Positions 1 through 16,894 of a DNA stretch of 64,000 nt are shown one piece after another. A program made the position numbers and the translations under genes. Every line of letters begins with the position of its first letter. Position 1 is the stretch's first letter. Origin of the DNA: Candidatus Latescibacterota bacterium. GTDB taxonomy: Bacteria; Latescibacterota; UBA2968; UBA8231. Below the pieces are notes generated by a model. That model worked only from the letters and a program-made list of their open reading frames with translations. It had not been told where the DNA came from and searched no databases. The stretch covers positions 192,001 through 256,000 of the forward strand of contig CBDCDC010000002.1 of NCBI GenBank assembly GCA_965215195.1, given 5' to 3'.

Positions 1-928
1 TGACCTCGGCATTGTTGACCTGCCCATCCAGCGCGAGACGCACACGGATTACCCGAAAATCGAAGCGTCCGGGTTGAAGGGGAGTATCCGTGAAATTTTC
101 GATGCTCAAAACAAGGATGCTCAAGCTATCAAGCTTGCATTCAAGCTTGCATTCGGCCCTGAGCAAGGCGATCTGCACGCGGGTGCCTTGGGGTTTACCG
201 ATGCACGTCTCTTGCTTTTCCCGGTCAAGTCGGTCAAAGGTGTGTTTGCATGGGTGACGTGCCCAGCAGTTTTGGAGCGTTTCAAATATGACCTCTCCAT
301 TTGCCAACCGAGCATTACGTTTGTTGACGATCTCCCTAGCCGCAATACGGTGCCGACCGAGAGCGGACTCATTGTGAAGGACGAGGGAAATGCCAAGAAA
401 ATCGTGTTGGAAGAATACACGTTCACTGTCAATTCCGACAAAGAATGTGATGCTGTCGCAAAGTGGATTGCCAACAGAGTCCTTCCGCCAGATCTATGCT
501 ATAACTATTGGCATGAGAAGGTGAAACGAATCCTCGTCGTGTTGAGCGATGATGATTTTCGCGATTTCGTGACGCTCTCAACGGAGGTCATCGCCCGAAC
601 CAAAATCGACAGTGAAACCGGCACCGTTCAATCGGGTGCGCTGTGGTACGAGGAATACTTACCTACGGATTCGATTCTTTACTCGCTTGCATTGACGACA
701 CCGCTGTTCTTAAAAGTTGATGGGAATGATGATGCACAAAAGCAAAAAGATGAGAAGGCAAAAAAAGGCATCTTCTATGCTGGCCAAGGGGTGGACAAAA
801 ACCACGAGGAAGCCAAGAAGGTGATGGAATTCTTTGCGGACGGATTGCCGAATATCATCCAAATCGGCGGCAATGCAACCATTGGCAAGGGATTGGTTCG
901 GACACACGTTTATCAACATGGGGGGTAA
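1..928 (+). CDS. cmr4: Type III-B CRISPR RAMP protein Cmr4 (5'-truncated by window edge)
   Basis: Frame 2 from the window start reads DLGIVDLPIQRETHTDYPKIEASGLKGS. Also DARLLLFPVKS, ALWYEEYLP and the C-terminal glycine loop IQIGGNATIGKG. Followed by cmr5 and cmr6. Confidence 0.95.
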   Translation, partial: DLGIVDLPIQRETHTDYPKIEASGLKGSIREIFDAQNKDAQAIKLAFKLAFGPEQGDLHAGALGFTDARLLLFPVKSVKGVFAWVTCPAVLERFKYDLSICQPSITFVDDLPSRNTVPTESGLIVKDEGNAKKIVLEEYTFTVNSDKECDAVAKWIANRVLPPDLCYNYWHEKVKRILVVLSDDDFRDFVTLSTEVIARTKIDSETGTVQSGALWYEEYLPTDSILYSLALTTPLFLKVDGNDDAQKQKDEKAKKGIFYAGQGVDKNHEEAKKVMEFFADGLPNIIQIGGNATIGKGLVRTHVYQHGG

Positions 929-929
929 A

Positions 930-1340
930 ATGATGCCACAAAATCAGACAACACTTAAGGGAATTGAACAGGGGCGGGCCAAGTATGCTTTCTGCGTTGT
1001 CAATGACGTCAGCCAGATCGAATCTGATGACTTAAAAAAGAAGTATAAAACTGCTGCGAAGAAGATTCCTGTTCTAATAAAAACCAACGGGCTTGGGCAA
1101 TCCCTAGCATTCATTAAGAAAAGGAATGATGGTTACGACAAGCTGTACGAGCAGATTGGGAACTGGATCCAAACTGAGGATGCCAAGCAATTGGTTCCGT
1201 CGGGCGAACTTGTCGAAGAGGTTATCCAACTTCAATCGCCTGTCTATCGGCAAGTCACTATCGAAACGCTCGCGCTACTCAATTGGATTCGCCGATTTGT
1301 GGATGGACTCATGAAAGATGTGGAGGCAGACAATGACTAA
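930..1340 (+). CDS. cmr5: Type III-B CRISPR small subunit Cmr5
   Basis: [10 protein letters not shown]...[23 protein letters not shown]...[18 protein letters not shown]; lies between cmr4 and cmr6. Start taken at ATG 930. Confidence 0.93.
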
Positions 1341-2400
1341 CTACCATCCATCCGATACGGAGCAACTGATTCGCTCATGTAACCACCGGATTGACAACTT
1401 TGCTCTACGCTACCGACATTTTTTGCGGATTGATGCCCCAAGAGGCAATGACCTGAAATACAAAATCAACTTTCAGTGTTCCGGTCAGAAGCTTGAGAAA
1501 TCGTCTCAAGAATGTGTCAAGCATCTGAGAGAACGGCAACGCCAGCAACTCCAGCAGTTTGCTATGCGCGGCATTGAACTTTACTGCGTTGATGCAACGG
1601 TTGATTGGCGGCTGATTGTTGGTCTCGGTAGCGAGCATATTCAGGAGACAAACATGACGCTCCATCACATCTACGGCATTCCGTACATTCCCGGAAGTGC
1701 TGTGAAGGGCGTGTTGCGCCACTGGTGGTTGCATGAGGATTTTGACAATGACGAAAACAAAGCCCTGAAAAATAAAAGTTTTCTCGCTCTCTTTGGCAGC
1801 CAAAAACAGCGCGGGAAAGTGCAATTCATTGACGCCTATCCTGATGAAGTCCGTTTTGCAACGGATATCATGAATCCGCACTATCCCGACTATTACAGTG
1901 GCAGCAAACCACCAACAGATTCTCAAAATCCAGTGCCTATCAATTTTTTGACCGTCGAGCAGACCACCTTTCGATTCGCTTTCTTGGCAAAGGATCAAGA
2001 ACTTCTCGATAAACTCAAGGCGCGATTTGAAGATGCCTTAGAAATGAAAGGCATTGGAGCGAAAACAGCGGTTGGTTATGGGTATTTCCGCGATTTTAAA
2101 GACCAGACTGCCAACATAACAGACCGTGAAGCCGATATGCCCGCTCGGCCTTTGAATGCGACCAAAAGCACTATATCAATCACAGCAGACCGCGAAGCCC
2201 GTGAAGTCGGAACTGTAAAATGGTTCAACGCTGCCAGAGGATTCGGTTTTATTGAGCAAGAAGGTGGCGAAGACGTTTTTGTCCATTATTCCGCGATTCA
2301 AGCCAAGGGCTATAAATCTTTGGCAGAGGGTGACTGTGTTGAATTTGACATTACCGAGGGGCCTAAGGGACTCCAAGCTTCAAATGTCGTGAAGCGATAA
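1333..2400 (+). CDS. cmr6: Cmr6 RAMP protein fused to a C-terminal cold-shock domain
   Basis: Cmr6 motifs [35 protein letters not shown] and [11 protein letters not shown]. These are followed in frame by [15 protein letters not shown]...DVFVHYSAI...[10 protein letters not shown] (CSD with RNP1/RNP2). Confidence 0.93.
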
Positions 2401-2587: not shown

Positions 2588-4471
2588 ATGCAAGAAGTAT
2601 TGCGCCAAGCGCGACAGCACATTGACGCGAGTGAATTCGACCGGGCCGAGAGCCTGTGTGCCGATGTCTTGGTGGCCGATCCGGTCTGTGTGCCGGCACA
2701 CCAACTGATGGCGCGGGTGTGGCTGGGACGGAAGCAACCCGACAAAGTGCGCGACCGCCTCGGGTATCGCGACCAGTTGCCCCACGACGAACACTATGTC
2801 GAGTGGGGCCTGATCGCCGAGGAGATGGAAGACTTGGAGACCGCCGGCCAGCTCTATGAAGGGCTGCTGCAGCGGGAGCCGCAAAACGCCGTGGCCCTGT
2901 ACCGGCTGGGCTTGCTGTGCCTCGAACGCGGCGAGCGGGACCGGGCCGTGGGCCTGTTGCAGCGCACCTTGCGGGCGAGTCCAGAGTACGCTCCGGCCGC
3001 GTTTGAGCTGGCCCAGTGCTATGCCGAAGACGAGTTGTGGGGGCTGGCGGCCGATGCGTACGAGCGGGGCTTGGAGCGCGACCCGTCCCATGAGGAGGCC
3101 CGCACCGCCCTGCAAGTGGTGGAGGCGCGGATGCGGGAACTGGCCGAGTTGCCCAGCAGCGAGGTGCCGGCCGGGGAGGGCCCCACGCGGCGGATGCGGG
3201 TATTGTTCGCTGGGCGGGAAAATGTCCACGCCCGGCAGTGGATAGACGAAAATGGCCGGGTTGGGTACAGTCCGGTCCATGAGCCGCTCGCCGAGCATCT
3301 GTTAAGCCTGCATTTGCAAGGGACCGCGACCTTGGGCGTGTACCCGGTGCGGGCCGACCAGACGGTGCTGTTTGGGGCCCTCGATATTGATGTGCGCAAA
3401 AACGCCCTCACCGCGGGGCAGCCGCTCGCCGACCGACTGCGGGAAACCGTGCAGGCCGATGCCCGGCGGCTCGCCCGGCAGTTCGATGCGTTGCACCTGC
3501 CGGTCTATGTGGAGGAGAGCGGGTACAAGGGCGTACATCTGTGGATCTTTCTTGCGGAGCCGGTGCCGGCTGCGGAGGTGAAGCGCTTTTTGGAGGCGGT
3601 CGTCCAGCGGGTCGGCCCCCCTGCGCCCGAGCTCCAGTGGGAGGTATTCCCCAAGCAAGAGCAGGTCGCCGAGGACCAGTTGGGCAATCTGATCAAGTTG
3701 CCGTTGGGCATTCATCTCAAGACTGGGCGGCGGTGTTTGTTCACGGACTTGGAAGGGCAGGAGTACAGCGATCAGGAAGGGTTCCTCCAGCGCATTCAGC
3801 AGGTTGAGCGCAAGGATTTCGAGCGGGCCGTGTCTCGCTTGGTGGCCCGGCCCGAGCAAGGCGGCGCGGCCGGGTCGGCTCAAGCCCTGCGCGAGGCTTT
3901 TCCCGAATACGAGGCCCTGTTCAAGGGCTGCCCGGTCTTGGTCGCCCTTATGGAAAAGGCCGTGGTCACCCATCACCTCACCCACGACGAACGCTTGGTC
4001 CTCAAGTGCGTTTTGGCGCACTTAGGCGACAGGGGGCGTCGGCTGATCCACAGTATTGTCGGGCACTGCCTCGATTACTCTGAGGCGATCACCCAGCAGC
4101 AAATTGAGCGCACCCCGCCCTATCCGGTCAGTTGTCCCAAAATTCGTCAGCGCCTCCCGGAGGTCACTTCAACGGTCAACTGCGCGTGTGTGTTCGAGTT
4201 GCCCGAAGGGGGGTATCCTTCGCCGCTGTTGCATCTCGAGCCAGACTTTACCAAGGGTCGGTCTCACAATGCCGATCGGCACGGGCCGATGGTGGACAAG
4301 TACGTGAATTTGCGGCGGGATTATCAGCGGCTGAGCCGCGAGTTGGCCCACCTCGAAGACGATCTGCGCTACGCGCTTGACTCGAGCGGCCAAGACGAGT
4401 TGCGGGCCGGCGGGTGGATTCTGCGCCGCGATGGGGAGGGTCGCTTAAAGGTGGAGATCGACTTGGGGTGA
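2588..4471 (+). CDS. CRISPR-associated primase-polymerase (CAPP): TPR repeats + AEP domain + PriL-like Cys-rich domain
   Basis: N-terminal TPRs. AEP motifs FGALDID, ESGYKGVHLW and EVFPKQ...GNLIKLPLG. Cys cluster GCPVL/HCLDY/SCPKI/NCAC. RBS AAGGAG. Stop overlaps the cas1 start (GTGA). Confidence 0.85.
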   Translation: MQEVLRQARQHIDASEFDRAESLCADVLVADPVCVPAHQLMARVWLGRKQPDKVRDRLGYRDQLPHDEHYVEWGLIAEEMEDLETAGQLYEGLLQREPQNAVALYRLGLLCLERGERDRAVGLLQRTLRASPEYAPAAFELAQCYAEDELWGLAADAYERGLERDPSHEEARTALQVVEARMRELAELPSSEVPAGEGPTRRMRVLFAGRENVHARQWIDENGRVGYSPVHEPLAEHLLSLHLQGTATLGVYPVRADQTVLFGALDIDVRKNALTAGQPLADRLRETVQADARRLARQFDALHLPVYVEESGYKGVHLWIFLAEPVPAAEVKRFLEAVVQRVGPPAPELQWEVFPKQEQVAEDQLGNLIKLPLGIHLKTGRRCLFTDLEGQEYSDQEGFLQRIQQVERKDFERAVSRLVARPEQGGAAGSAQALREAFPEYEALFKGCPVLVALMEKAVVTHHLTHDERLVLKCVLAHLGDRGRRLIHSIVGHCLDYSEAITQQQIERTPPYPVSCPKIRQRLPEVTSTVNCACVFELPEGGYPSPLLHLEPDFTKGRSHNADRHGPMVDKYVNLRRDYQRLSRELAHLEDDLRYALDSSGQDELRAGGWILRRDGEGRLKVEIDLG

Positions 4472-5466
4472 TTCTCTATGTGACGGATCAGGGCGCGGGG
4501 GTCTATTGCCGCGGCGAGCGTTTGCAGGTGCGGCGGCGCAAGGAAGTATTGGCCGAGGTGCATCTGTACGATCTGGAACAGGTGGTGCTCATGGGCCGGA
4601 TCGCGCTTTCGGCCGCGGCCATGGGCACGTTGCTCGAGCGGGGCGTGGATACAGTCTTGCTGAGCGTGCATGGTCGATACCGGGGCCGGCTGGTCGGACC
4701 CGAACGGCGCAATGTGCTGCTGCGGCAACAGCAGTTCAAGCGCTACGAAGACGAGCCGTTTCGGCTGGGGGTGGGGCGGGCCGTGGTTGAGGGCAAGCTA
4801 CGCAATATGCGGACCCTGCTCATGCGCTTGGCCCGGCGGCGCAGGGTGGATGTGGGGGCGGTGGCCCACTTGCTGCGTCGGTCGATTCAGCAGGTCGGGC
4901 AGGCGACTAACGCGGAGTCGCTACGCGGTTTGGAGGGGGCCGGTAGCGCGGCTTATTTTGGGGTGCTTGGGGACTTTTTTCCCGAGGAACTCCCGTTCAA
5001 GGGACGCAACCGACGGCCGCCCAAGGATCCGGCCAATGCGCTGCTCAGCTTTGGGTATGCTCTGTTAGGCAACAGTGTGGAGGGCGCGGTCTATTTGGCC
5101 GGGCTCGATCCGTACTTGGGCTTTCTGCATGTGGTGGACTATGGGCGTCCTTCGCTCTCGCTGGATTTGATGGAGGAATTTCGGCCGGTGTTGGTTGATG
5201 CGCTGGTCTTGGATTTGGTCAACCACCATCGGGTGCAGAGCGAGGATTTTGAAGCGCGGGACGGAGGGGTATTTTTGCAGGGGGCGGGCCGCAAGCGGCT
5301 GATTGAGGCGTACCAACGCCGTCTCGAAGACCGGGTGGCCTACCCAGTAGGGGCCGAGCGAGTGGAACGGATTTCTTATCGGCGTTGCCTCGAATATCAG
5401 GTGCGCCGATTGGCCCGGGTGATCTTGGGCGAGGAAGACCACTATCGGGCCTTTCTGGTGCGTTGA
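4468..5466 (+). CDS. cas1: CRISPR integrase Cas1
   Basis: LRGLEGAGSAAYF, RNRRPPKDPANALLSFGY, GLDPYLGFLH and SLSLDLMEEFRP. GTG start at 4468 overlaps the CAPP stop. Confidence 0.96.
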   Translation: MILYVTDQGAGVYCRGERLQVRRRKEVLAEVHLYDLEQVVLMGRIALSAAAMGTLLERGVDTVLLSVHGRYRGRLVGPERRNVLLRQQQFKRYEDEPFRLGVGRAVVEGKLRNMRTLLMRLARRRRVDVGAVAHLLRRSIQQVGQATNAESLRGLEGAGSAAYFGVLGDFFPEELPFKGRNRRPPKDPANALLSFGYALLGNSVEGAVYLAGLDPYLGFLHVVDYGRPSLSLDLMEEFRPVLVDALVLDLVNHHRVQSEDFEARDGGVFLQGAGRKRLIEAYQRRLEDRVAYPVGAERVERISYRRCLEYQVRRLARVILGEEDHYRAFLVR

Positions 5467-5467
5467 G

Positions 5468-5743
5468 ATGTTTGTGACGGTTTGCTTTGATATCAGCTCG
5501 GACCGAACCCGTCGGCAGGCGACTCGGGTGCTGGAGGCTTATGGGACGCGGGTGCAGAAGAGTGTGTTCGAATGTCGCATTGGTGAGCGGCAGTTTGTCG
5601 AGTTGCGGCAACGCATGAGTCAGATCAATCTGGGGGCAGGTGATCTGGTGCGCTACTATACGCTGTGCCGGGCTTGTCAGGCCAAAGTCGAATTTACCGG
5701 CGGTTTGCCGCCGCAGGAGGAAAAAGGGCATATCGTCGTTTGA
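5468..5743 (+). CDS. cas2: Cas2
   Basis: VCFDISSDRTR...YGTRVQKSVFEC...DLVRYYTLCRAC; immediately after cas1. Confidence 0.95.
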   Translation: MFVTVCFDISSDRTRRQATRVLEAYGTRVQKSVFECRIGERQFVELRQRMSQINLGAGDLVRYYTLCRACQAKVEFTGGLPPQEEKGHIVV

Positions 5744-6004
5744 AAGGGGGAATTTGCGACTCAGTTTAAGAAAGGGTTGTCAAAATAGCACAATGGGGTT
5801 ATATTTTTTTGTGCCGTAAGGAATTGGGTGCGTTACTTGATCCGATTCTGGGTCGCAAATGGGTAACGGCCTGTCCTAGAATTAGTTGGCTCAGATGCTC
5901 TTGCCACAGTCAGAATGGTTTTGATAGGCGGGTGCCTGTCAAAATGGCCTGAGTCGCATAAGGGGGCTAGACGGACTGTGGCCCAATAAGTTAGAAAGGA
6001 GGCA
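5744..6004 (+). promoter_or_regulatory. CRISPR leader with sigma70-like promoter
   Basis: AT-richer non-coding stretch before the first repeat; TTGTCA(5777)-17 nt-TATATT(5800). Confidence 0.7.
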
Positions 6005-8354
6005 ATCAGAACACTGGACCCGATTTGTAGGGGATTGAAACGAGCCGATATCCGGTGTGGCGGCAAATTCAATACATAAATCAGAACACTGGACCCGATT
6101 TGTAGGGGATTGAAACATGCCGTTTTCGACCTCGCCGCCGGTCCACGTGTACGTATCAGAACACTGGACCCGATTTGTAGGGGATTGAAACACACCCAAG
6201 AGGTGTCCACCCGCACCAGGACCCGAGAGATCAGAACACTGGACCCGATTTGTAGGGGATTGAAACTTCTTGTTCCGCATCCTGCCGCGCAGCTTCCTGG
6301 ATATCAGAACACTGGACCCGATTTGTAGGGGATTGAAACTTTGCCGCGACCCGCTCCATGCACTCGTTAAACTCTTATCAGAACACTGGACCCGATTTGT
6401 AGGGGATTGAAACGTAATTAAACGACACGAGGTTGTTGTGAAACACACACATCAGAACACTGGACCCGATTTGTAGGGGATTGAAACCGAGAAAGTCATC
6501 TTCGGGTGGCGAGTACAGTGGCGAAATCAGAACACTGGACCCGATTTGTAGGGGATTGAAACATCTGTAGGCTGACGTCTTCGATCGTGATGGTATCGGG
6601 GTATCAGAACACTGGACCCGATTTGTAGGGGATTGAAACACGGCACCGACCGCTTCCTCGACCTCCGTAACCACCTATCAGAACACTGGACCCGATTTGT
6701 AGGGGATTGAAACTAATGGTCTCGGTCTCAGTCTCGGCCGAAGTCTCGGTATCAGAACACTGGACCCGATTTGTAGGGGATTGAAACTTCTTGCCCACAC
6801 GAATGTGGGGGTTTTGTGCCTCCGATCAGAACACTGGACCCGATTTGTAGGGGATTGAAACCACTTGGGCGGCCCCATGTCCGCAGCCGAGTTGCTCATA
6901 TCAGAACACTGGACCCGATTTGTAGGGGATTGAAACGAAAAGAAGAGGGCGAACGCCTGGGTCTTGTACCCTCCCAATCAGAACACTGGACCCGATTTGT
7001 AGGGGATTGAAACCACGACTTGTCGAGGGGGAAGTCTTCGGGGAGTCTCTCATCAGAACACTGGACCCGATTTGTAGGGGATTGAAACTGGATGGAGTTC
7101 TGCTGGAGAGCGTACTGGAAACCGAAATCAGAACACTGGACCCGATTTGTAGGGGATTGAAACGGGTCAGCGCCCGCCCGATAGGGTTTCTCGAAGAATC
7201 AGAACACTGGACCCGATTTGTAGGGGATTGAAACTGCCCGAGAACTCGCCGGGACCAATCAGAGACGCACATCAGAACACTGGACCCGATTTGTAGGGGA
7301 TTGAAACTTTTTTTCATACGGGGGTTCCTTCGCGTTGGGCGCGGATCAGAACACTGGACCCGATTTGTAGGGGATTGAAACTCAACCCACCTAGCCCGAA
7401 TCCCCCGAATCCCAAAAAAATCAGAACACTGGACCCGATTTGTAGGGGATTGAAACTTTAGAGAGTTGGGTTAGGTGGTTTGCGGCTTCCTCTTATCAGA
7501 ACACTGGACCCGATTTGTAGGGGATTGAAACTTGATGTCATTAACAGTGATCTGGAACATTTTGGCCTATCAGAACACTGGACCCGATTTGTAGGGGATT
7601 GAAACCCGATCGCCGCCCACCTCGTCCGGCGGATTTACCATCTCATCAGAACACTGGACCCGATTTGTAGGGGATTGAAACTTATGTGGGAATGGGGGTG
7701 GAAAAAAAACGACGAGATCAGAACACTGGACCCGATTTGTAGGGGATTGAAACAATGACTGCCTGACGCGACGGAGCGTCTTGATCAGGTATCAGAACAC
7801 TGGACCCGATTTGTAGGGGATTGAAACTTCATCACGATGCTTAAGTGCTCGGGGGCAATTTTCCCATCAGAACACTGGACCCGATTTGTAGGGGATTGAA
7901 ACTCGTCGAATTCGGGACTGAGCCCATTCTCGGTTTGAACGATCAGAACACTGGACCCGATTTGTAGGGGATTGAAACGCTCCTGCAGGGCAATCAGCGC
8001 CCTCTTGGTTCTTGCCATCAGAACACTGGACCCGATTTGTAGGGGATTGAAACACCTGCACGGTGGTCCCGAGTGCGAGCTCGTTTACAAGGATCAGAAC
8101 ACTGGACCCGATTTGTAGGGGATTGAAACACCTCCGAGACCACTTCGTCGGACTCGAGGTTGATATATCAGAACACTGGACCCGATTTGTAGGGGATTGA
8201 AACGCTTAGTGGGGCGACCTAGAAGAGCCGTTCCTCGAGCGATCAGAACACTGGACCCGATTTGTAGGGGATTGAAACCGATCTGGAACATTTGAGTCTC
8301 CTCAATTGTGGCCGCAGATCAGAACACTGGACCCGATTTGTAGGGGATTGAAAC
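6005..8354 (+). CRISPR. CRISPR array, 32 repeats of 37 nt (ATCAGAACACTGGACCCGATTTGTAGGGGATTGAAAC), 31 spacers of about 34-40 nt
   Basis: Repeats counted by eye from 6005 to 8318. The 3' ATTGAAAC tag and the leader position give the + orientation. Confidence 0.98.
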
Positions 8355-8380
8355 CCCGGAAGGCAGAAAGGAGGAGGCAA

Positions 8381-8482
8381 ATGAAAAAGGTTGTCTGCGC
8401 TGGACCGCCTAGGTCCGGCAGAAGCTATTTGTGCGAGGGATTGAAGCAGGCTATTATAAAAATTACCAAAGACGACCCGTAA
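8381..8482 (+). pseudogene. 33-codon remnant of a P-loop NTPase N-terminus (resembles Csx3/Crn3-linked ATPases)
   Basis: RBS AGGAGGAGG, then MKKVVCAGPPRSGRSYLCEGLKQAII...* (degenerate Walker A GPPxSG[KR]S). The family assignment is from memory, not from a search. Confidence 0.55.
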
Positions 8483-8529
8483 AAGATTGCTGGCGTTGTG
8501 ACTCGCCAAATACAATCGAGGTTTGCGTA

Positions 8530-10230
8530 GTGCCAATCGCTGAAACAGTATTAAACGGCATCCAAGACAGAGGCCGACGAGCACTGCCCATTGAGAGAAT
8601 TTATCGACACCTCTACAACCCCGACCTATTCCTACGTGCTTATGGGCGCATCTACCGAAAAACAGGGGCGACCACACAAGGCATCACAGAAGAAACCACA
8701 GATGGCATGTCAATGAAGAAAATCAATACCCTCCTAGAGAAATTCCGCTGTGAGCGTTACCAATGGACTCCGGTAAGGCGGATATATATTCCCAAGAAAA
8801 ACGGCGGGCGGCGTCCGCTCGGCATCCCCGTTTGGTCCGATAAACTGGTACAAGAAGTCATGCGATCCATACTGGAAGCCTACTATGAACCCCAGTTTAG
8901 CGATCTGTCCCACGGCTTCCGAGCTAACCGAGGCTGTCACTCTGCACTAAGAGAAATTGCAAAATGGAAAGACATAGACTGGTTTATCGAAGGCGACATC
9001 AAAGAATGTTTTGACAGCATAGACCACGATCTACTACTGTCCATATTGAAAGAGAAAGTCCACGATGATCGATTCATTGTCTTACTCGGCCAGCTTCTCA
9101 AGGTCGGATATGTAGAGTATGGGAGCTACAAATCCACCCTGATCGGCACCCCACAAGGAGGGCCTGTAAGCCCAATCTTTGCCAATGTGTATCTCGACAA
9201 GCTGGATAGGTTTGTCGAAAACACACTCATGCCTCGCTATACAAAAGGTAATTGGAAAACCGCGAGGAACTTGCAAAGAATAATGCGGCAAAGGCCGCTA
9301 TCTAATGCCAAAAATCATATCTTTAGACGACTGCGCTATATCCGATACGCCGACGACTTTCTGATTGGCTTTACCGGGCTAGAGGCAGAAGTAAAAGAAG
9401 TCAAGAGGTGCCTCAAAGGATTTCTCCAAGAAAAGCTGAAATTGGAACTATCAGAGGACAAAACCTTGCTCACGTACGCCCGCACCGAGAAAGCACAATT
9501 CCTCGGATACGAAATCAAAAGAATGACTGAAAATACCAAACACAAAAAAGGCCGAAAGCCGATCAACAACGCGCTGAGTCTCAGCGTTCCAATAAGATTC
9601 ATAAAAGAGCGATGTGAACTCTATATAAAATACGGGCGAATAATGCCTCGTGCCGAACTGATCAACGACAGCGACGCCGACATCACGAGTTTCTTTCAGA
9701 GCCGATATGCCGGTTATGTGCAATACTACATGCTTGCCCACAATGTCCACGCCTTAAACGAAGTGCGATGGGTTATGGAGAAGTCCTTGCTCAAGACGCT
9801 TGCCAAAAAGCATAAAACGAGCGTCAATCAGTTTGAAAAACAGTACAAGACGACCATCCAAACACCCCACGGTCCGCAAAAGTGCTTGGAGATGCAGGTG
9901 GTAAATCGAGAAGGAGAACCACAGATCGCACGCTTTGGCGGCATTCCTCTCAGACGACGACAAGGTAAGACCATTGAGGATCAAGCCCAAAATGATGCTC
10001 CCACGAGCAAAGGGACAGAACTCATCCAACGCCTGCTGGCAAACCTATGCGAATGCTGCGGCTCAGCGGGCAGAGTCGAAGTTCACCACATCCGAAAACT
10101 CGCCGACATCAAAAAGGGGAGGTCGCCAAAACCCAAATGGACGCAAGAAATGATCGCGCACCAGCGAAAAACCTTGATTGTGTGCAAAAAGTGTCATCGC
10201 GCCATCCATTCGGACCAAATCAGCCACTGA
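8530..10230 (+). CDS. Group II intron-type reverse transcriptase/maturase with C-terminal HNH endonuclease
   Basis: RPLGIP..DKLVQ, SHGFR, WFIEGDIKECFDSIDH, GTPQGGPVSP, RYADD, thumb/X domain, and CECCG..VEVHHIRKL..RKTLIVCKKCH. GTG at 8530 (MPIAETVL) matches the usual N-terminus of this class. Confidence 0.93.
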   Translation: MPIAETVLNGIQDRGRRALPIERIYRHLYNPDLFLRAYGRIYRKTGATTQGITEETTDGMSMKKINTLLEKFRCERYQWTPVRRIYIPKKNGGRRPLGIPVWSDKLVQEVMRSILEAYYEPQFSDLSHGFRANRGCHSALREIAKWKDIDWFIEGDIKECFDSIDHDLLLSILKEKVHDDRFIVLLGQLLKVGYVEYGSYKSTLIGTPQGGPVSPIFANVYLDKLDRFVENTLMPRYTKGNWKTARNLQRIMRQRPLSNAKNHIFRRLRYIRYADDFLIGFTGLEAEVKEVKRCLKGFLQEKLKLELSEDKTLLTYARTEKAQFLGYEIKRMTENTKHKKGRKPINNALSLSVPIRFIKERCELYIKYGRIMPRAELINDSDADITSFFQSRYAGYVQYYMLAHNVHALNEVRWVMEKSLLKTLAKKHKTSVNQFEKQYKTTIQTPHGPQKCLEMQVVNREGEPQIARFGGIPLRRRQGKTIEDQAQNDAPTSKGTELIQRLLANLCECCGSAGRVEVHHIRKLADIKKGRSPKPKWTQEMIAHQRKTLIVCKKCHRAIHSDQISH

Positions 10231-10282
10231 TGTTAGGCTCTGGCGGTTTGGCCTCTTTATCAAAATCTCAAAGGAGCAACTC

Positions 10283-11665
10283 ATGGAAACAGCCACACAC
10301 CAGCCAGCGAATGAGCCGCACACGATCTTGTTATGCACCGTCGGCGGTGCTCATCAGCCGATTCTTGAGGCAATTGACTCAACGTCACCTAGCTATGTCT
10401 GCTTCTTCTGCACGGACAAAGATCCCGTGACCCAAAAGCCAGGTACTATCGGTCATGTGACCGGTAGTGGCTATGTCATCAAGGCTGACTACAACGAAAC
10501 TAAGCCTACGTTGCCGAATATCCCCACCCAAGCGCGTCTTAATAACGGCGAGTTTGAAACGCAGATAGTCCCGGCGGACGACCTTGATGGGGCTTATTTA
10601 GTCATGCGTAACGCCATCATCAACTTGGCTGCGCGATTTTCGGGCCCCCGATTTATCGCCGACTATACGGGGGGCACCAAGACGATGACGGCGGCACTTG
10701 TATGCGCTGCCTTACAGGGGAGGGATGATGTCGAGCTTCAACTTGTTACGGGTACCCGTTCCACTCCCACCATCGTGGACGATGGAACCGAACAGGCGAT
10801 GACAGCGAGCGTGGCTCGTCTGCGCCTTGAACGGGCGATGGCACCCTATCTTGGGGCTTGGTCGCGGTATGCGTATTACGAAGCCGCGGAAGGGCTGAGA
10901 AGCATCCGAATTGTCAGCAACGACCGCGATCGGCAGGGGTTCCTCTTTGTAAGCTCACTAAGCCGAGCCCTAGCTCTTTGGGATAACTTCAATCATGCCG
11001 ACGCATTAAAGTTGATGCGGCACTATGGAGGGCAAGTCGCTCAATGCTATCCGAAAATGTTGCCTTGGTTGGACTTACTCGCTAAGGAGAAGGGGAACGA
11101 ACCCGCACTGCTGTTTGACCTCTGGTTAAATGCCCAGCGGTGTGCAGCCCAAGGCCGGTTCGACGATGCGATTGCGCGATGGTACCGCCTGCTGGAGTGG
11201 ACAGCTCAATGGCAACTGCAAACGAAGCTCAAGGCCAATACCGCGGATTTTGCATCTGATTTGCTGCCATCGGGTGTTGACGCGGCTCCAAGTAGCGATA
11301 AAAAAATCAAGCTCGGACTTTGGCAGGCATGGCAAGTCGTGAAGCACCATGAACGCCTGTCGGGACCCGCTCAAGAATTCATCAAGAACCACGGGGGGAA
11401 GGTCTTCGATTTACTTAAGGTACGCAACAATTCGATACTGGCTCACGGTTTTCGTCCAGTGAGTGACTCGGACTGGCAGCAGGTGTATTCGTGGACGCAG
11501 GACAAATTCCTGCCTGCCCGTTCTGCGTCAGTTAGCCGCCAAAGCAAACATAAAAAAAGAGCCGGAGCAACTCCCGACCACACCTCCAGAATTCTTCACC
11601 TGAACCGCGTCCGACAGTTACTGGCTCGCTTGATCCGTTTGTCTCAGTACACGACAGCAACCTAA
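10283..11665 (+). CDS. CARF-HEPN cOA-activated ribonuclease (TIGR02710/Csm6-like); C-terminus frameshifted, probable native stop at 11603
   Basis: LLCTVGG, DYTGGTKTMTAAL (CARF), YRLLE, and HEPN RNNSILAH. RBS AAGGAG. CCTG duplication at 11509-11516. Confidence 0.85.
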   Translation: METATHQPANEPHTILLCTVGGAHQPILEAIDSTSPSYVCFFCTDKDPVTQKPGTIGHVTGSGYVIKADYNETKPTLPNIPTQARLNNGEFETQIVPADDLDGAYLVMRNAIINLAARFSGPRFIADYTGGTKTMTAALVCAALQGRDDVELQLVTGTRSTPTIVDDGTEQAMTASVARLRLERAMAPYLGAWSRYAYYEAAEGLRSIRIVSNDRDRQGFLFVSSLSRALALWDNFNHADALKLMRHYGGQVAQCYPKMLPWLDLLAKEKGNEPALLFDLWLNAQRCAAQGRFDDAIARWYRLLEWTAQWQLQTKLKANTADFASDLLPSGVDAAPSSDKKIKLGLWQAWQVVKHHERLSGPAQEFIKNHGGKVFDLLKVRNNSILAHGFRPVSDSDWQQVYSWTQDKFLPARSASVSRQSKHKKRAGATPDHTSRILHLNRVRQLLARLIRLSQYTTAT

Positions 11666-11829
11666 GTTGTGGCACGACGCTGATGGGCTTGGTTGTGCAA
11701 CGGCTGGTTGAAGAAGCCCGAAAGCTGGATCGCCCGGTGCGACGTTTTGCTCTCATTGATCGCCGTTCCCAAGACGAGCAGGACAGCGATCCGTTTGTGC
11801 AGGGCGATTGCCACTGGCTTGACAACTGA
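11659..11829 (+). pseudogene. C-terminal fragment of a second CARF-like protein
   Basis: NLSCGTTLMGLVVQRLVEEARKLDRPVRRFALIDRR...DPFVQGDCHWLDN*. NLSCGT resembles the CARF [DN]xTGG[TK] motif. No upstream part is present. Confidence 0.45.
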
Positions 11830-12339
11830 ATGAGACTGAGGCTATTGATGCCTGCCACTATTCTTTGCTCATCTGCCAGACCCTCCAACGCCTCACGAGC
11901 AACCCCCAGTACAAGCTCAAGCGATACCACATCACGACCCAGTAACACCTGCATTTTTTGCACTTTTGCACCAGTTCGGCCCCTCGCCCCGCTCCTCGCC
12001 CGGCAGTGCCTCTTGCGTAAGTAACGCATTTACAATGCCTTAACGGCCCCTCAACCAAGTCTGGCATTGGATTTGCTATCTATACGTAGGTCGATGGTCC
12101 CTGCCGTGCAGCCGGGAGAGTTTCACGGCCTAATAGGGCAAGCAATTTGGGCACTTGATGCTTTGCAGCTCCCAATTGAAACGGTGAGAGTGCAAATTAT
12201 GCACTTTGAGCACCCCAAGGCCGGTGCTTCTAACTCGCGCAATTTGAGTGCCTTGCAGGCCGTCGGCTCGAAATTGTTGCAACGGAGGGCAAAAATTTGC
12301 GCCTGCTAACCCCATTTCCAAGGAGGTTTCGCGATCCAA

Positions 12340-12885
12340 GAGGTGAAGTGTTGACTCATTGCTAGGGGATTGAAGCTGAGGATGAGGATGGTACGTTGGT
12401 TGTTTTTCGCTACGCGGCGGTAAATTAGCCCAATCAACCTAATAACCGGGAGAACAAGATGGAAGATTATTCGGCGGTAGTCTGCAAAGCCGTAGTGGAT
12501 CATATTTCAATACGCTACGGATCAGCCGGATCAGCCAGATGTTCGAGAAGGTGGGTAGAAACCGAACCCGGCTTGATGCACAGGATTTCTAGAAAATGGC
12601 TGGCGGACCACAGGCGTTGGGTGGAGTTTCGCCACGCGCCCAAGCGGCAACAGGCTGCCGAGGATTCCGAGCGTCGCCGGCGGGCTGTATATGCTCGCTA
12701 TGCCTTGCTCGAGGAATGGGAATTTGTCGATAGTAAACGGCCGGGTAAGGCCCGGTCTTGGTTTGCTCCTATTTGAAGAGTTGCCCCGATTGCTAGGGGA
12801 TTGAAACTGTGGGAGCATGATGGGAGCACGCGGAGCATGAGCCGAGTTGCTTAGCGCGTTGCCCCGTTTTCCAGAGGATCGAAAC
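12340..12885 (+). CRISPR. Relic second CRISPR array with a variant repeat, interrupted by a non-repeat insert
   Basis: Intact 37-mer ATTTGAAGAGTTGCCCCGATTGCTAGGGGATTGAAAC at 12771-12807. Degenerate copies at 12340-12376 and 12849-12885. A 41-nt spacer separates the last two. Confidence 0.7.
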
Positions 12886-12917
12886 CACCCCAGCGCCACA
12901 GCCCAGCGATTCCGCCC

Positions 12918-13637
12918 ATGCGCCTCTGCGACTTTCCAATCCTGACCTTCGACACCTATGGAACCCTGATCGACTGGGAGACGGGAATCTGGGATGCGCT
13001 GCAACCGCTCTGCTCGCGTCTGGCCGACCCGCCGACCCGCGAGGCGGCCCTCGCAGCATTCGCACGGGCGGAATCGGCCGGCCAAGCGGCCACCCCGGAC
13101 CTGCTCTATGCCGACCTCTTGGCAGCCACCCACCGCACACTGGCCCGGACTTGGGGCCGCGAACCCGAGGATGCCGAGAGCATCCGCTTCGGCCAGTCGG
13201 TCGGGGACTGGCCGGCCTTTGCCGACGCGGCCGAATCGCTCGCCTACCTGCAACGCCACCACCGGCTGATCACCCTCACCAATTGCGACCGCGCCAGCTA
13301 CCAGGGCAGTGCCGCCCGCCTCGGCGATCCTTGGGACGCGATTCTCACGGCCGAGGAGATCGGCTCGTACAAACCGTCGCTGGCCAACTTTGAATTCCTG
13401 CTCGCCCGGGTGGCGGCCGACTTTGGCCATGCTCCCGGGAGCATCCTGCACGTCGCCCAGAGCCTCTTTCACGACCACGTGCCGGCCAAGGCGCTCGGAC
13501 TGACGACGGCATGGATTGACCGGCGTGCGGGGCGCAAAGGCGGCGCGACAGTACCGCCGCAGAAGGCAGTGGAACCCGACTTCTGTTTCAAAAGCATGGC
13601 GGAGCTGGTCGCCCAGCATCGCGCCGAACGGGCCTGA
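12918..13637 (+). CDS. HAD-superfamily hydrolase (haloacid dehalogenase type II-like)
   Basis: LTFDTYGTLIDWE, IGSYKPS, LHVAQSLFHD. Confidence 0.92.
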   Translation: MRLCDFPILTFDTYGTLIDWETGIWDALQPLCSRLADPPTREAALAAFARAESAGQAATPDLLYADLLAATHRTLARTWGREPEDAESIRFGQSVGDWPAFADAAESLAYLQRHHRLITLTNCDRASYQGSAARLGDPWDAILTAEEIGSYKPSLANFEFLLARVAADFGHAPGSILHVAQSLFHDHVPAKALGLTTAWIDRRAGRKGGATVPPQKAVEPDFCFKSMAELVAQHRAERA

Positions 13638-14881: not shown

Positions 14882-16894
14882 ATGAAGTACTTATTCACCG
14901 GCGGCGGCACGGGCGGCCACGTGTACCCGGCCTTGGCCATGGCCAACGAAGTTCGGCAGACGCGGGCAGACGCCGAATTCCTCTATGTGGGCCATCGAGA
15001 CAAGTTAGAGTCTTGGGTGGTGCCCGAGCAGGGGTATCCCATCCGCTTTGTCCGCGCCCGCCCCTTCCCCCGGACGCGCTCTCCGGTGGCCCTGTTGCGG
15101 TTCGCCGGTGCGCTCGCGGTCGGGGTGGTCCAAGGGGTGTGCATCCTCTTGCGCTACCGGCCCCAAGTCATCGTCAGCACGGGCGGCTTTGTCAGTGCGC
15201 CGATCCTCTTCGCGCATGGGGCGTTGGCAAAGGTCGGCCTTTCTCGCGCCCGCGTCTTTATCTACGAGCCGAATGCTTACCCCGGGCTTTTGAACCAAAT
15301 TAGCGGGCGGCTGGCCCAGCGAATCGGGGTGGCGTTTGAGCAGGCGGGCCGCTGGTTCGACATGAAGCGGGTGGCGGTGGTCGGCTATCCGGTGCGCCGC
15401 TCTTTTTTGCACCTCGACCGGTCGGCCGCACGGGAAAAGTTGGGCCTTGCCCAAGGCCGCAAGGTCGTGCTCGCCTTTGGCGGGTCGGGGGGGGCCAAGG
15501 CCATCAACGAGGCCGTGCTCCAAGCCTTGCCCCTCTGGCAAGCGGCCGGGCTGGTGGTCATCCACGTCACCGGTCGCTACAAGGGGCCGGATTACGACGC
15601 CGTGGCAGAGACCGAGGCGGCCTTGGCGGCGATGGGGATGGAGGGAGAATGCGACTGGTATCGACGCCTCGATTACGCGGATCAGATCGCCGATCTGGTC
15701 GCAGCGGCCGATCTGGTCATTTGCCGCTCCGGGGCCGGTACGCTCACCGAGATGGCGGTCAGCGGGACGCCCACCCTGATTGTGCCACTGCCGACCTCGG
15801 CCGAAGACCACCAAGCCCTCAACGCCCGCGAGATGGAGCGGATAGGGGCTGCTCAGGTGCTCTATCAAGAGGCGTTTTGGGACAACGCCGGCATCCACAG
15901 TCGGGTAGATGGAGAAAAAATGGCGCGGCAGGTGCTCGCATTGTGCGCCGACGAGGCGCGCTTGCAGGCCATGGGCAAGGCCGCCAAGACCATGCCCAAG
16001 GCCAACAGCCTCGAACTCATCGCGGCCGAGCTGGACCGCCTCATCGCCGGGCAGCGGCCACCGGCGCTGCGCTTGGAATTGCCCCCGGCCAAAAGCGGCT
16101 TGCCGACCGCTCCCAACGCCTTGCTGCGCTGGGTGCAGGCGCGGGTCGCAGAGGTGGGGGGCGTGGAGGCGATGGAGCGCGGCGAACTGGCCTACCTGCG
16201 CTATCAAGCCGATCGCCTGCTCGCGTCCGAGGGTTGGTGCGAAATCCCGCTGGGGCAGCGCAATGTGGGCGTCAAGCTCGTGGCGGTCTTAAACTACCAA
16301 GAGCGGCTGCCCTTGCTGCTGCACATCCTCACCGACCGCACCCCGGCCGGCCGGCCGCGCCGCTTTTGCGGCGGCGACTTCCGCCACGGGGGTATTATAC
16401 GCCGCAATGCAATTGAATACGGCCTGCGCGGCTTGGGGGCGAGCGACGCGCAAACCCGGGCCGCGCTGCTCAACGCGCTGGCCGCGGACCCCTACTTCGA
16501 GGTGCGGGCGTGGGCCGCGCAGGCCCTCGGGGAGTTGTTTGCAGTTGATGGCGAGATCGAAGGCGTGCTCGGCGCGGCCCTCGACGATAGCGCACCAGAA
16601 GTGGTCGTCCAAGCCCTCGGTGCCCTCGGGAAAATAAGCCACAATTCCGACCTGCTAGCGCGGCTGCGTTGCTTCTACCGGCACCCGAACTGGCAGATTC
16701 GCGAGCAGGTCGTGCTGGTGCTGATCGAATTTTTGCAGCGCGGCGTCTTGGAGCCGGCGCAATTGGAGCGCGATCTCGACCAAGTCCTGATCTCGATGCC
16801 TTATTTCAAGCCGGAGTTTCCCCTCGGCACACACCTGCGCGAATTGGCCGATCTCGTGCACACCGAGCGGTCCCTAGTGGCTTCGCAGCGATGA
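14882..16894 (+). CDS. murG: MurG-like glycosyltransferase with C-terminal HEAT-repeat extension
   Basis: TGGGTGGHVYPA, STGGFVS, EPNAYPG, FGGSGGA, RSGAGTL, DHQALNA. C-terminal DPYFEVRAWAAQALG/DSAPEVVVQALGALG/HPNWQIRE repeats. Confidence 0.88.
   Translation: MKYLFTGGGTGGHVYPALAMANEVRQTRADAEFLYVGHRDKLESWVVPEQGYPIRFVRARPFPRTRSPVALLRFAGALAVGVVQGVCILLRYRPQVIVSTGGFVSAPILFAHGALAKVGLSRARVFIYEPNAYPGLLNQISGRLAQRIGVAFEQAGRWFDMKRVAVVGYPVRRSFLHLDRSAAREKLGLAQGRKVVLAFGGSGGAKAINEAVLQALPLWQAAGLVVIHVTGRYKGPDYDAVAETEAALAAMGMEGECDWYRRLDYADQIADLVAAADLVICRSGAGTLTEMAVSGTPTLIVPLPTSAEDHQALNAREMERIGAAQVLYQEAFWDNAGIHSRVDGEKMARQVLALCADEARLQAMGKAAKTMPKANSLELIAAELDRLIAGQRPPALRLELPPAKSGLPTAPNALLRWVQARVAEVGGVEAMERGELAYLRYQADRLLASEGWCEIPLGQRNVGVKLVAVLNYQERLPLLLHILTDRTPAGRPRRFCGGDFRHGGIIRRNAIEYGLRGLGASDAQTRAALLNALAADPYFEVRAWAAQALGELFAVDGEIEGVLGAALDDSAPEVVVQALGALGKISHNSDLLARLRCFYRHPNWQIREQVVLVLIEFLQRGVLEPAQLERDLDQVLISMPYFKPEFPLGTHLRELADLVHTERSLVASQR

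Follow-up and report, generated by a model that had tools for sequence, protein, structure and literature searches.

A group II intron-type reverse transcriptase without intron RNA beside CRISPR arrays with a CAPP-Cas1-Cas2 module in Latescibacterota

Introduction

Spacers derived from RNA have been reported for RT-Cas1 proteins, together with repeated recruitment of reverse transcriptases (RTs) from group II introns and fusions of RTs to Prim-Pol domains (PMC6013744, PMC8632793, PMC10415136, PMC6821258). The fusions were named CAPP_A type 2 proteins (PMC8211822) and characterised as CART-CAPP (PMC10415136), and a review describes the CRISPR clade 12 RTs as "adjacent or fused to" an AEP primase domain (PMC8632793). 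For CART-CAPP, an inactive Prim-Pol domain and priming by the RT itself are reported (PMC10415136), so that an RT may be able to prime without CAPP. The Methanosarcina CRISPR-linked RT (Toro clade 1; Silas branch 11) has been read as a recent, independent domestication of a group II intron (PMC5513706, PMC6013744), and the planctomycete entries in the part of Table S1 of Toro 2018 used here are all RT-Cas1 or Cas6-RT-Cas1 fusions.

We analysed a stretch of 64,000 nucleotides from a Candidatus Latescibacterota bacterium, hereafter the window. Like the CART-CAPP fusions (Caloramator australicus CaCART-CAPP; Toro clade 12), it combines an RT, an archaeo-eukaryotic Prim-Pol and Cas1-Cas2 in a type III locus, the RT being of group II intron ancestry without intron RNA. 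Unlike in the fusions as described, RT and CAPP are separate genes flanking the array and CAPP is of the TPR type; the RT is a full-length protein with X and HNH, and its similarity to the CaCART RT domain is only remote (3e-10). A sequence-only reading of the locus had held that an RT and CAPP were not known to have been described together, which is wrong given the published type III loci with an RT and a Prim-Pol (PMC8211822, PMC10415136, PMC8632793).

Other relatives differ in other ways. The RT-Cas1 and Cas6-RT-Cas1 proteins (M. mediterranea, V. vulnificus, Thiomicrospira 7KFT), the functional model of RNA spacer uptake, also carry a group II-derived, ribozyme-less RT linked to type III adaptation, but the present RT is neither fused nor adjacent to Cas1, retains HNH and resembles Cas6-RT-Cas1 weakly (5.4e-13). 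Its best solved relative is LtrA of Ll.LtrB (599 aa; 1.7e-99, 337 bits), with which, as with other En-bearing mobile group II intron proteins, it shares domain order, length and YADD plus HNH. In contrast to LtrA-type proteins, its ribozyme is gone, it is present as a single copy in its own genome at a fixed position after the array, and it scores 269.7 bits against TIGR04416, under the cut-off of 300. The Methanosarcina RT is similarly stand-alone, nested among intron RTs and in a CRISPR-cas locus (PMC5513706, PMC6013744), but it is described as archaeal, beside cas6 in a locus without cas1, and reportedly of class F intron origin; the present RT has a bacterial host, accompanies a CAPP-Cas1-Cas2 module and keeps HNH. 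For the adaptation genes a close system is Marinitoga piezophila MpCAPP-Cas1-Cas2 (type III-B), with a TPR-AEP-CTD CAPP and the order CAPP-cas1-cas2 beside arrays, an operon described without an RT gene (PMC8211822), whereas here an RT follows the array.

Results

Layout of the locus

On one strand throughout (+), the genes run cmr4-cmr5-cmr6, CAPP (TPR-AEP-CTD), cas1, cas2, leader, 32 repeats, RT-maturase-HNH and CARF-HEPN (Table 1). CAPP, Cas1, Cas2, the array, RT-HNH, CARF-HEPN and Cmr lie where the sequence-only reading had put them, on the + strand, and the two polymerases that it saw in one co-oriented type III-B locus are borne out. The repeats that it called uniform are a single 37-nt sequence present 32 times without change, and the translations show both YADD and DxD (CAPP). 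Within 16 kb upstream of the window lie cmr1, cas10/cmr2, cmr3, a gene for CARF-RelE and a weakly matching cas6.

The window CAPP matches above cut-off the NCBIfam model named after the Marinitoga-type protein (NF040561, "CRISPR-associated primase-polymerase type A1": E 1e-107, 360.9 bits, cut-off 200), as well as Pfam AEP-TOTE (4.9e-44) and the PADLOC "PrimPol adaptation polymerase" (7.4e-82), and has N-terminal TPR repeats at residues 70-170. The start of cas1 overlaps the CAPP stop codon, an arrangement also found in relatives, whose Cas1 proteins have 332 aa and 86-89% identity. CARF-HEPN matches TIGR02710 above cut-off (2e-45), Csm6 HEPN (3.2e-20) and PADLOC CARF1--CARF_HEPN (6.8e-116).

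Table 1. Features of the CRISPR locus (positions in the window)
Feature	Position	Strand	Evidence and remarks
cmr4	2..928	+	TIGR02580 3.3e-63, above cut-off; 5' end truncated by window edge
cmr5	834..1340	+	Pfam Cas_Cmr5 8e-32; TIGR01881 2.8e-18
cmr6 with C-terminal cold-shock domain fusion	1318..2400	+	TIGR01898 5.2e-49 (residues 96-257); Pfam CSD 2.7e-27 (residues 298-359)
CAPP, TPR-AEP-CTD type CRISPR-associated primase-polymerase	2588..4471	+	NF040561, AEP-TOTE, TPR, PADLOC
cas1	4468..5466	+	Pfam Cas_Cas1 1.6e-95; ORF opens 4414, likely start 4468
cas2	5468..5743	+	Pfam CRISPR_Cas2 3.6e-19; TIGR01573 9.1e-17
leader	5744..6004	+	between cas2 and first repeat
promoter-like site in leader	5777-5805	+	sigma-70-like, 10/12 positions; consensus match only
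CRISPR array: 32 identical 37-nt repeats ending ATTGAAAC and 31 spacers of 34-40 nt	6005..8354	+	
spacer 7	6488..6525	+	38/38 to the genome's only 16S rRNA gene, sense (blastn)
spacer 12	6862..6899	+	38/38 to transketolase N-terminal-subunit gene (Transketolase_N 2.2e-53), sense
spacer 16	7164..7197	+	34/34 to 648-aa gene with FlgD_ig/CHU_C C-terminus, sense
degenerate terminal repeat remnant	~8400..8447	+	read by eye; 5' core and 3' end of the repeat, extra bases between
intron-less group II intron-type RT (RT motifs, X/maturase, HNH)	8530..10230	+	ORF opens 8431; likely start GTG 8530
CARF-HEPN (Csm6/Csx1 family) accessory RNase	10283..11665	+	ORF opens 10178; likely start ATG 10283

A complete RT without its intron

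With 566 aa and intact YADD, X and HNH, the RT is complete as a group II intron-type protein, and its GTG start agrees with the N-termini of relatives. Pfam finds RVT_1 (2.6e-30), Intron_maturas2 (8.1e-11) and an AI2M-like HNH (4.2e-14), and no CARF, SAVED or similar sensor domain. In PADLOC the gene is best matched by "homing endonuclease" and generic RT models instead of those for Cas RTs; its scores against DRT and retron models are far lower.

Around the gene, nothing is left of intron domains I-III, V or VI. Across the 64-kb window no Rfam family reached its gathering score; between 5700 and 12600 a search at E<=10 gave 35 matches, none to an intron family, and domain V (RF00029) had no match across the whole 6.13-Mb genome. 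Only 52 nt separate the RT stop from the CARF start, and in three relatives (G028, G043, G126) the next gene is 14-25 nt away.

The RT clade and its neighbours

Relatives were sought in 168 genomes of the phylum, and a clade threshold of E<=1e-120 retained six genomes, that of the window included; the five closest relatives are 65-73% identical to the window RT. Together with 21 metagenomic proteins the six RTs form one clade with a long stem and support of 1.0. Domain V is absent from all six loci of this clade (0/6), versus 9/9 among more distant relatives (44-63% identity). The 21 metagenomic members lie on contigs with a median length of 42 kb, and the other 99 family matches on contigs with a median of 3.2 kb, as multi-copy mobile elements give.

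Each of the six RT-clade members with visible context follows directly on the trailer end of an array whose repeat is related. On the leader side of the array, CAPP-cas1-cas2 is on the same contig in five of the six loci (the window and four relatives); in G028 it is on another contig, which ends in the same array. A CARF-HEPN gene immediately follows the RT in 5/6 loci, and in the sixth a Card1-like CARF nuclease is one gene off. The effector sets beside the module differ: the window and G028 have Cmr, and G043, G126, G123 and G021 have fused-RAMP systems. This indicates that the RT is tied to the array and adaptation part.

The sequence-only reading had proposed a survey of CAPP loci for nearby RTs. 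The pairing recurs in all six RT-clade loci and is no accident of one genome. It is no strict requirement: among 10 closely related CAPP modules, four (G027, G037, G041, G044) lack the RT, in genomes without any match at E<=1e-10, and none was found near 10 distant CAPP loci within the DNA examined. Given its absence from the four close loci, the RT is dispensable for the CAPP module. The RT-less G027 locus occupies a syntenic chromosomal site and has a 246-repeat array.

Selection on the RT gene

The RT is under purifying selection, with dN/dS of 0.11-0.19 in 15/15 pairs, compared to 0.09-0.12 for CAPP and 0.08-0.11 for cas1. Its ORF is intact in all six genomes despite 27-37% amino-acid divergence, and in the clade alignment YADD, the motif-3 Asp, both Cys pairs and the HH of HNH are invariant in 24/24 sequences. 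In the unsaturated pair G043-G126, dS is nearly equal for RT (0.217), CAPP (0.226) and cas1 (0.232), indicating co-inheritance. In same-genus pairs, the RT has diverged at synonymous sites about twice as much as CAPP and cas1 have, which means that it did not simply share the history of the adaptation genes.

Host-derived spacers

Three of the 31 spacers (7, 12 and 16) match the host perfectly, all in sense orientation. Spacer 7 comes from the 16S rRNA gene at C2:2562715-2564271 (- strand), and public contigs continue from its sequence into 16S sequence. The RT-less G027 array has 3 perfect self spacers of 245, and the RT-less type III-A system of S. thermophilus is reported to sample rRNA and tRNA gene clusters preferentially, with ∼85% of new spacers from the coding strand via counter-selection (PMC8860593). 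Because such spacers also occur in RT-less systems, they cannot separate RT-dependent from RT-independent uptake.

Discussion

With its intron RNA lost, its position conserved, its catalytic motifs intact and selection purifying, the RT very probably represents a domesticated, CRISPR-linked lineage. The explanation that we favour as a whole is a domesticated En+ intron RT serving RNA-templated prespacer synthesis with CAPP-Cas1-Cas2, to which we give a probability of about 0.4; that RNA-derived spacer uptake is the job of the RT is held tentatively. An endonuclease-containing (En+) group II intron would have inserted at the trailer end of a type III CRISPR array and then lost its ribozyme, keeping RT motifs 0-7, the X/maturase-thumb, the DNA-binding region and HNH, to become a fixed single-copy gene travelling with the CAPP-Cas1-Cas2-leader-array adaptation module. 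The RT would probably be expressed together with the array transcript or just after it, and, as RT-Cas1 and CART proteins do, would make prespacers from RNA by RNA-templated DNA synthesis. Cas1-Cas2 would integrate these prespacers, CAPP would add DNA-templated priming, second-strand or gap-filling synthesis, and HNH may trim the prespacer or give a nick or 3'-OH. The crRNAs would then be used by the Cmr complex and CARF nucleases against transcripts.

Against a role in adaptation stands the entire array that separates the RT from cas1-cas2; together with the CARF nuclease neighbours, this means that an accessory role would fit too. The RT-HNH would then be a stand-alone defence or accessory effector (Abi/DRT-like cDNA synthesis or nuclease), co-transcribed with the CARF nucleases and outside spacer uptake. 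The CARF-HEPN or Card1-like gene near the RT in all six loci, its absence from 4/10 close CAPP modules, common for accessory genes, and the PADLOC preference for "homing endonuclease" and generic RT models over Cas RT all agree with this. We nevertheless consider it unlikely: Pfam finds no sensor domain in the RT, the array trailer precedes it in 6/6 clade members regardless of the downstream genes, and its LtrA-like RT-X-HNH architecture occurs in no known defence RT family, with far lower DRT and retron scores.

Somewhat less likely still, the RT could be a DNA-templated polymerase or nuclease of adaptation (gap filling after Cas1 integration, HNH prespacer processing), or a maturase-like RNA-binding cofactor on long pre-crRNA. 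CARTs and a group II RT are reported to prime and synthesise on DNA in vitro (PMC10415136), X/maturase and HNH are no less conserved than the RT core, and DNA sampling of structured, transcribed loci could yield the host spacers, as in RT-less type III-A (PMC8860593). However, CAPP is reported to provide DNA-templated priming, extension and strand displacement (PMC8211822), which would make a second DNA polymerase redundant, and group II RTs are described as preferring RNA templates (GsRT, PMC10415136). That the gene is merely an ORF left behind by a dead group II intron, hitch-hiking with a horizontally moving CRISPR module and functionless for the host, is improbable. The family is mobile, with domain V in 9/9 more distant relatives and most of its members on short, repeat-typical contigs, and four of ten close modules lack the RT; yet a dead ORF agrees poorly with six intact reading frames at such divergence, dN/dS near that of CAPP and cas1, invariant catalytic residues, and closely packed neighbour genes with no remnant of domains I-III, V or VI.

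To our knowledge, the known CRISPR RTs are without an En domain, and HNH has no established role in adaptation. Our analysis suggests that the RT gene is a recently recruited helper of CRISPR memory formation, belonging to an apparently new lineage of CRISPR RTs which retains En/HNH and is placed after the array.

Organisation of the locus

The segment 2588-11665 had been described in the sequence-only reading as a candidate type III-B locus made of a CAPP-Cas1-Cas2 operon, an array, an RT-HNH gene and a CARF-HEPN gene. This description proved right in every part, and all elements are on the + strand (see table). In the CRISPR-associated primase-polymerase (CAPP), TPR Pfam matches cover residues 70-170 and an AEP-TOTE match residues 204-412, and motifs that we take to be of the DxD and SGxxGxH types are visible in the translation. 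CAPP and cas1 overlap at their stop and start, and cas2 lies directly next, an order also found in 9 relatives. An R-x6-H motif is visible close to the C-terminus of the CARF-HEPN protein.

Features of the CAPP-array-RT locus (window coordinates)
Feature	Position	Strand	Remarks
CAPP, TPR-AEP-CTD class A type 1	2588-4471	+	NCBIfam NF040561, E 1e-107, 360.9 bits (cut-off 200)
Leader	between cas2 and array	+	260 nt, with promoter-like site
CRISPR array	6005-8354	+	32 identical 37-nt repeats, 31 spacers
RT-maturase-HNH protein	8530-10230 (likely)	+	566-599 aa
CARF-HEPN, Csm6/Csx1 type	downstream of RT	+	TIGR02710 155.4 bits (cut-off 83.9); Csm6 HEPN 3.2e-20; PADLOC CARF1--CARF_HEPN 6.8e-116

The type III-B Cmr set is complete, with cmr4, cmr5 and cmr6 in the window, ahead of CAPP, and cmr1, cmr2 and cmr3 upstream of it in the DNA piece L002, all above cut-offs. 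The cas10/cmr2, cmr1 and cmr3 genes, a weak cas6 match (23 bits, below cut-off) and a CARF-RelE gene are all placed within 16 kb before the window. The last of these (L002:14637-15920, PADLOC CARF7--CARF_RelE 1.6e-97) sits between cmr3 and cmr4 and comes in addition to CARF-HEPN, so that the locus holds two different CARF effectors.

Some further observations were made on these genes and their neighbours. Cmr6 (1318-2400) is fused to a C-terminal cold-shock domain (Pfam CSD 2.7e-27), and a RAMP protein at a relative's locus (L032:12642-14246) has such a domain at its N-terminus; it is unusual for a type III backbone subunit to be fused to an RNA-chaperone-like domain. A further fusion, of MurG with HEAT repeats at its C-terminus (14882-16894), lies beside MraY and is kept in the related genome G027 (L069:9761-11806). 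Two flanking ORFs, at 12531-13619 (- strand, 362 aa) and L002:7783-9354 (523 aa), had no match in Pfam, NCBIfam or PADLOC, and the 'planctomycete cytochrome' domains of a neighbouring gene are a hint of Planctomycetota. When window positions 5400-10700 were compared with a contig of the public run X6, three parts were found joined in order at about 99% identity, namely the leader (to 6002), 7866-7907 and 8356-10700. This contig represents the same cas2-leader-RT-CARF locus, with an array that is either very short or was collapsed by the assembler.

An intron protein without its intron

The RT carries RVT_1 (Pfam, 2.6e-30), Intron_maturas2 (8.1e-11) and AI2M-like HNH (4.2e-14) domains, and thus has all the protein hallmarks of an En+ mobile group II intron, namely a YADD RT, an X/maturase domain and a C-terminal HNH. 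Thousands of database proteins share this make-up, many of them named group II intron RT/maturase. [quoted passage not shown] PADLOC gave 77-194 bits with Cas RT models against 335 with the intron-type model, and the TIGR04416 equivalog score was 269.7 bits, under the cut-off of 300.

The possibility that the gene belongs to an intact mobile intron was dropped, since no intron RNA was detected by Rfam in the whole window at gathering score, no intron family in 5700-12600 at E<=10, and no domain V (RF00029) in the whole 6.13-Mb genome. The end of the array, including a degenerate repeat remnant at about 8400-8447 (recognised by eye), lies 80-175 nt before the likely RT start at 8530, and the CARF gene starts 52 nt past the RT stop; there is therefore no room for a ribozyme around the RT. 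Signs of mobility, such as several copies or ORF-less partner introns, were not found in the genome either, where the RT is single copy (one RT match).

Conservation of the RT behind CRISPR arrays

At E<=1e-120, relatives of the RT were found in 6 of the 168 phylum genomes searched (that of the window and five others), in two families. The five relatives are 65-73% identical, and each comes immediately behind an array trailer, the repeat of the array being similar to that of the window. CAPP-cas1-cas2 is on the leader side, on the same contig, in four of the five, and in the last, G028, it is on another contig, which terminates in the same array. The CRISPR linkage of this intron-less RT is thus conserved: an array precedes the RT in all six clade members of known context, and 5/6 have CAPP-cas1-cas2 on the same contig. 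The RT is nevertheless neither adjacent nor fused to cas1, from which it is separated by the leader and an entire array (2.8 kb for the window). A prediction of an RT-Cas1 complex gave a score of 0.00, which counts neither for nor against binding.

Group II domain V was detected by Rfam at none of the 6 clade loci, against 9 of 9 more distant relatives (44-63% identity), where it lies at most about 150 nt from the end of the ORF. A search of genome contigs returned matches of 44-54% identity at 11 loci, with domain V in all 7 that were scanned with Rfam, while relatives were 28-42% identical in metagenome contigs and at most 41% in viral contigs. A tree was built of 126 members of the family, in which the six RTs group with 21 metagenomic proteins (P0004-P0022, P0058 and P0067) in one clade with a long stem and a support of 1.0. 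The contigs encoding these clade proteins have a median length of 42 kb (n=21), compared to 3.2 kb for the other 99 members, for which short contigs are as expected of repeated mobile elements.

The RT ORF is under purifying selection, with dN/dS values of 0.11-0.19 in 15 pairs out of 15 (CAPP, 0.09-0.12; cas1, 0.08-0.11), and the YADD, the motif-3 aspartate, both cysteine pairs and the HH of HNH are invariant in all 24 clade sequences. For the least diverged pair, synonymous distances across RT, CAPP and cas1 were nearly equal (0.217, 0.226 and 0.232). In same-genus pairs the synonymous divergence of the RT was about twice that of CAPP and cas1, for which recombination across the array is one possibility. 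The genes past the RT differ between loci, with a Cmr module at some and fused-RAMP systems at others, and the RT therefore goes with the array and the adaptation side. We concluded from these comparisons that an RT-X-HNH protein devoid of ribozyme, kept by selection and with intact catalytic motifs, has become fixed behind the arrays of one CAPP-Cas1-Cas2 family.

The junction between array and RT is occupied in two genomes. In G028, the last intact repeat is followed by an ORF of about 139 aa and a repeat remnant before the RT begins (L016:1120-1892), and a PHP-like ORF fragment fills the gap in G021 (L014). This junction therefore accepts insertions.

CAPP loci with and without RT

CAPP was found in 19 of the 168 phylum genomes, at 21 places, and the survey for nearby RTs proposed by the sequence-only reading covered 10 close and 10 distant places, leaving out one further place (G079). 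Among the 10 loci with a close CAPP (81-89% identical to that of the window), six have the RT and four, in G027, G037, G041 and G044, do not; no RT match was obtained in these four genomes at E<=1e-10. At the ten loci where CAPP is 41-46% identical, no RT was seen in the DNA fetched, two of them being on contigs too short (about 5 kb) to be informative. The RT is therefore not universal among CAPP modules.

The congener G027 has CAPP-cas1-cas2 at the same chromosomal site (L054:9081-20000 and L069:1-7664). Its array of 246 repeats runs straight into the SDR, MurG-HEAT and MraY genes, which also follow the locus of the window, and neither RT nor CARF-HEPN is present. The close group divides into three subclades in a CAPP+Cas1 tree, and loci with the RT occur in two of these, which requires at least two losses or two gains of the RT.

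Spacers derived from the host

Three of the 31 spacers of the window array are perfect, full-length copies of its own chromosome: spacer 7 matches the single 16S rRNA gene, with flanks borne out by public contigs, spacer 12 a transketolase subunit gene and spacer 16 the gene of a 648-aa protein. In all three cases the crRNA has the same sense as the RNA, so that none would target it. Two other CRISPR loci of this genome (C2:947442-954285 and C2:4548251-4552997) have their own cas1, no CAPP and different repeats (67 and 43); their 108 spacers had no perfect self match, and one 37/39 match (3/31 vs 0/108, p = 0.01). A comparison of the array with phage and plasmid collections gave no match to foreign protospacers.

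Self spacers were also frequent in the RT-bearing G028, where the 8 newest spacers, those next to the leader, include 7 that copy its own genome perfectly (L063:8970-9967), with no self match among 14 trailer-side spacers. Of these seven, five match protein genes in the sense orientation and one an intergenic stretch; the last is the complement of the tag-coding end of tmRNA, an orientation that corresponds to targeting. Perfect self matches were absent from the 54, 30 and 17 spacers of the RT-bearing G021, G043 and G126 (one 36/39 match in G021). As for RT-less genomes, G041 had none among 27 spacers and G027 had 3 among 245, of which the two examined are sense in protein genes. Overall, self spacers amount to 10/158 in RT-linked arrays and 3/272 in RT-less CAPP arrays (Fisher p = 0.003). 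Stable-RNA genes hold 2 of the 10, with a rough post hoc chance of 1e-4.

Could this reflect capture of RNA? The counts are driven by two arrays, with self spacers present at all in 2 of 5 arrays linked to the RT and in 1 of 2 without it. In the RT-less type III-A system of S. thermophilus, rRNA and tRNA gene clusters are among the strongest hot spots of uptake, and about 85% of spacers are from the coding strand, through counter-selection, as given in the accessible part of PMC8860593. From the part accessible of a study on RT-Cas1 (PMC6821258) comes the warning that a link to transcription does not tell RNA from DNA sources. With RT-less systems, G027 included, behaving alike, we rejected self spacers and sense bias as a sign of RNA capture. 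The host-derived pattern is real and noteworthy, but it does not discriminate between RT-dependent and RT-independent uptake, and so is no evidence for a role of the RT. Natural arrays with host rRNA, tmRNA and coding-strand spacers are a wild-genome mirror of the adaptation pattern of type III-A in the laboratory.

Discussion

The interpretation put forward in the sequence-only reading is supported in part, the RT-CAPP pairing being real and conserved. Its claim of novelty, that no description of the two together was known, was wrong as worded, since both are already reported in type III loci, as seen in the sections available of three papers. CAPP_A type 2 proteins are RT-Prim-Pol fusions (PMC8211822), and these were characterised as CART-CAPP (CART, CRISPR-associated reverse transcriptase), in which priming is done by the RT domain itself, the Prim-Pol domain being inactive (PMC10415136). 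A review places in CRISPR-RT clade 12 RTs 'adjacent or fused to' an AEP domain (PMC8632793).

What sets the present RT apart is its kind and its place. In the available text of PMC6013744, the 'multiple origins' model has CRISPR loci repeatedly recruit group II intron RTs, with loss of the ribozyme. The CRISPR RT lineages to date are presented there as old and as kin of En-less intron classes. They are related to class C introns or, in Methanosarcina, to class F introns, they adjoin or fuse with cas1 or cas6, and no endonuclease domain is described; the Planctomycetes rows of its Table S1 are all RT-Cas1 or Cas6-RT-Cas1 fusions. In the accessible portions of PMC8632793 and PMC5513706, neither an HNH nor an En domain is mentioned for any RT linked to CRISPR. 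Whereas published lineages are next to or fused with cas1 or cas6, the RT studied here stands at the array trailer, away from cas1. In our literature search we came across no report of an LtrA-like RT that carries an HNH and is fixed at the trailer of an array, a result that is provisional, as the 15 CRISPR-RT clades reportedly defined in the survey of Toro et al. 2019 ('Multiple origins...') lie outside the comparison. The clade is apparently a CRISPR-associated RT lineage of independent origin that has kept its En domain.

Like RT-Cas1 and CART proteins, the RT may copy RNA into DNA for prespacers, which Cas1-Cas2 would integrate, with CAPP possibly supplying DNA-templated synthesis. Because no + strand terminator-like site was found between array, RT and CARF gene, and a promoter-like site is present in the leader, read-through expression of RT and CARF from the array is plausible. 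A bolder reading, which we consider improbable, is that the HNH and maturase parts are not leftovers and that the RT performs target-primed reverse transcription at the CRISPR array itself. The leader-repeat junction would be opened by Cas1-Cas2 (or the HNH), the RT would copy an RNA protospacer straight into the array from the nicked 3'-OH, and CAPP would make the second strand. If this were true, the module would serve in nature to record transcripts of the cell and of invaders, and the 16S rRNA, tmRNA and mRNA-sense host spacers of two RT-bearing arrays would be its footprints. CRISPR-linked RTs, which have been put to use for transcript recording, are to our knowledge the only natural route from RNA to CRISPR memory.

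Whatever its activity, this RT lineage appears to be a younger, independent recruitment. All protein domains of a mobile intron are kept and the ribozyme alone is gone, so the lineage would represent an early stage in the published sequence 'intron lands, ribozyme is lost, RT co-evolves'. Close relatives of the adaptation module occur naturally both with the RT (6) and lacking it (4), and comparing them makes it testable what RT, HNH and Prim-Pol each add to type III adaptation.
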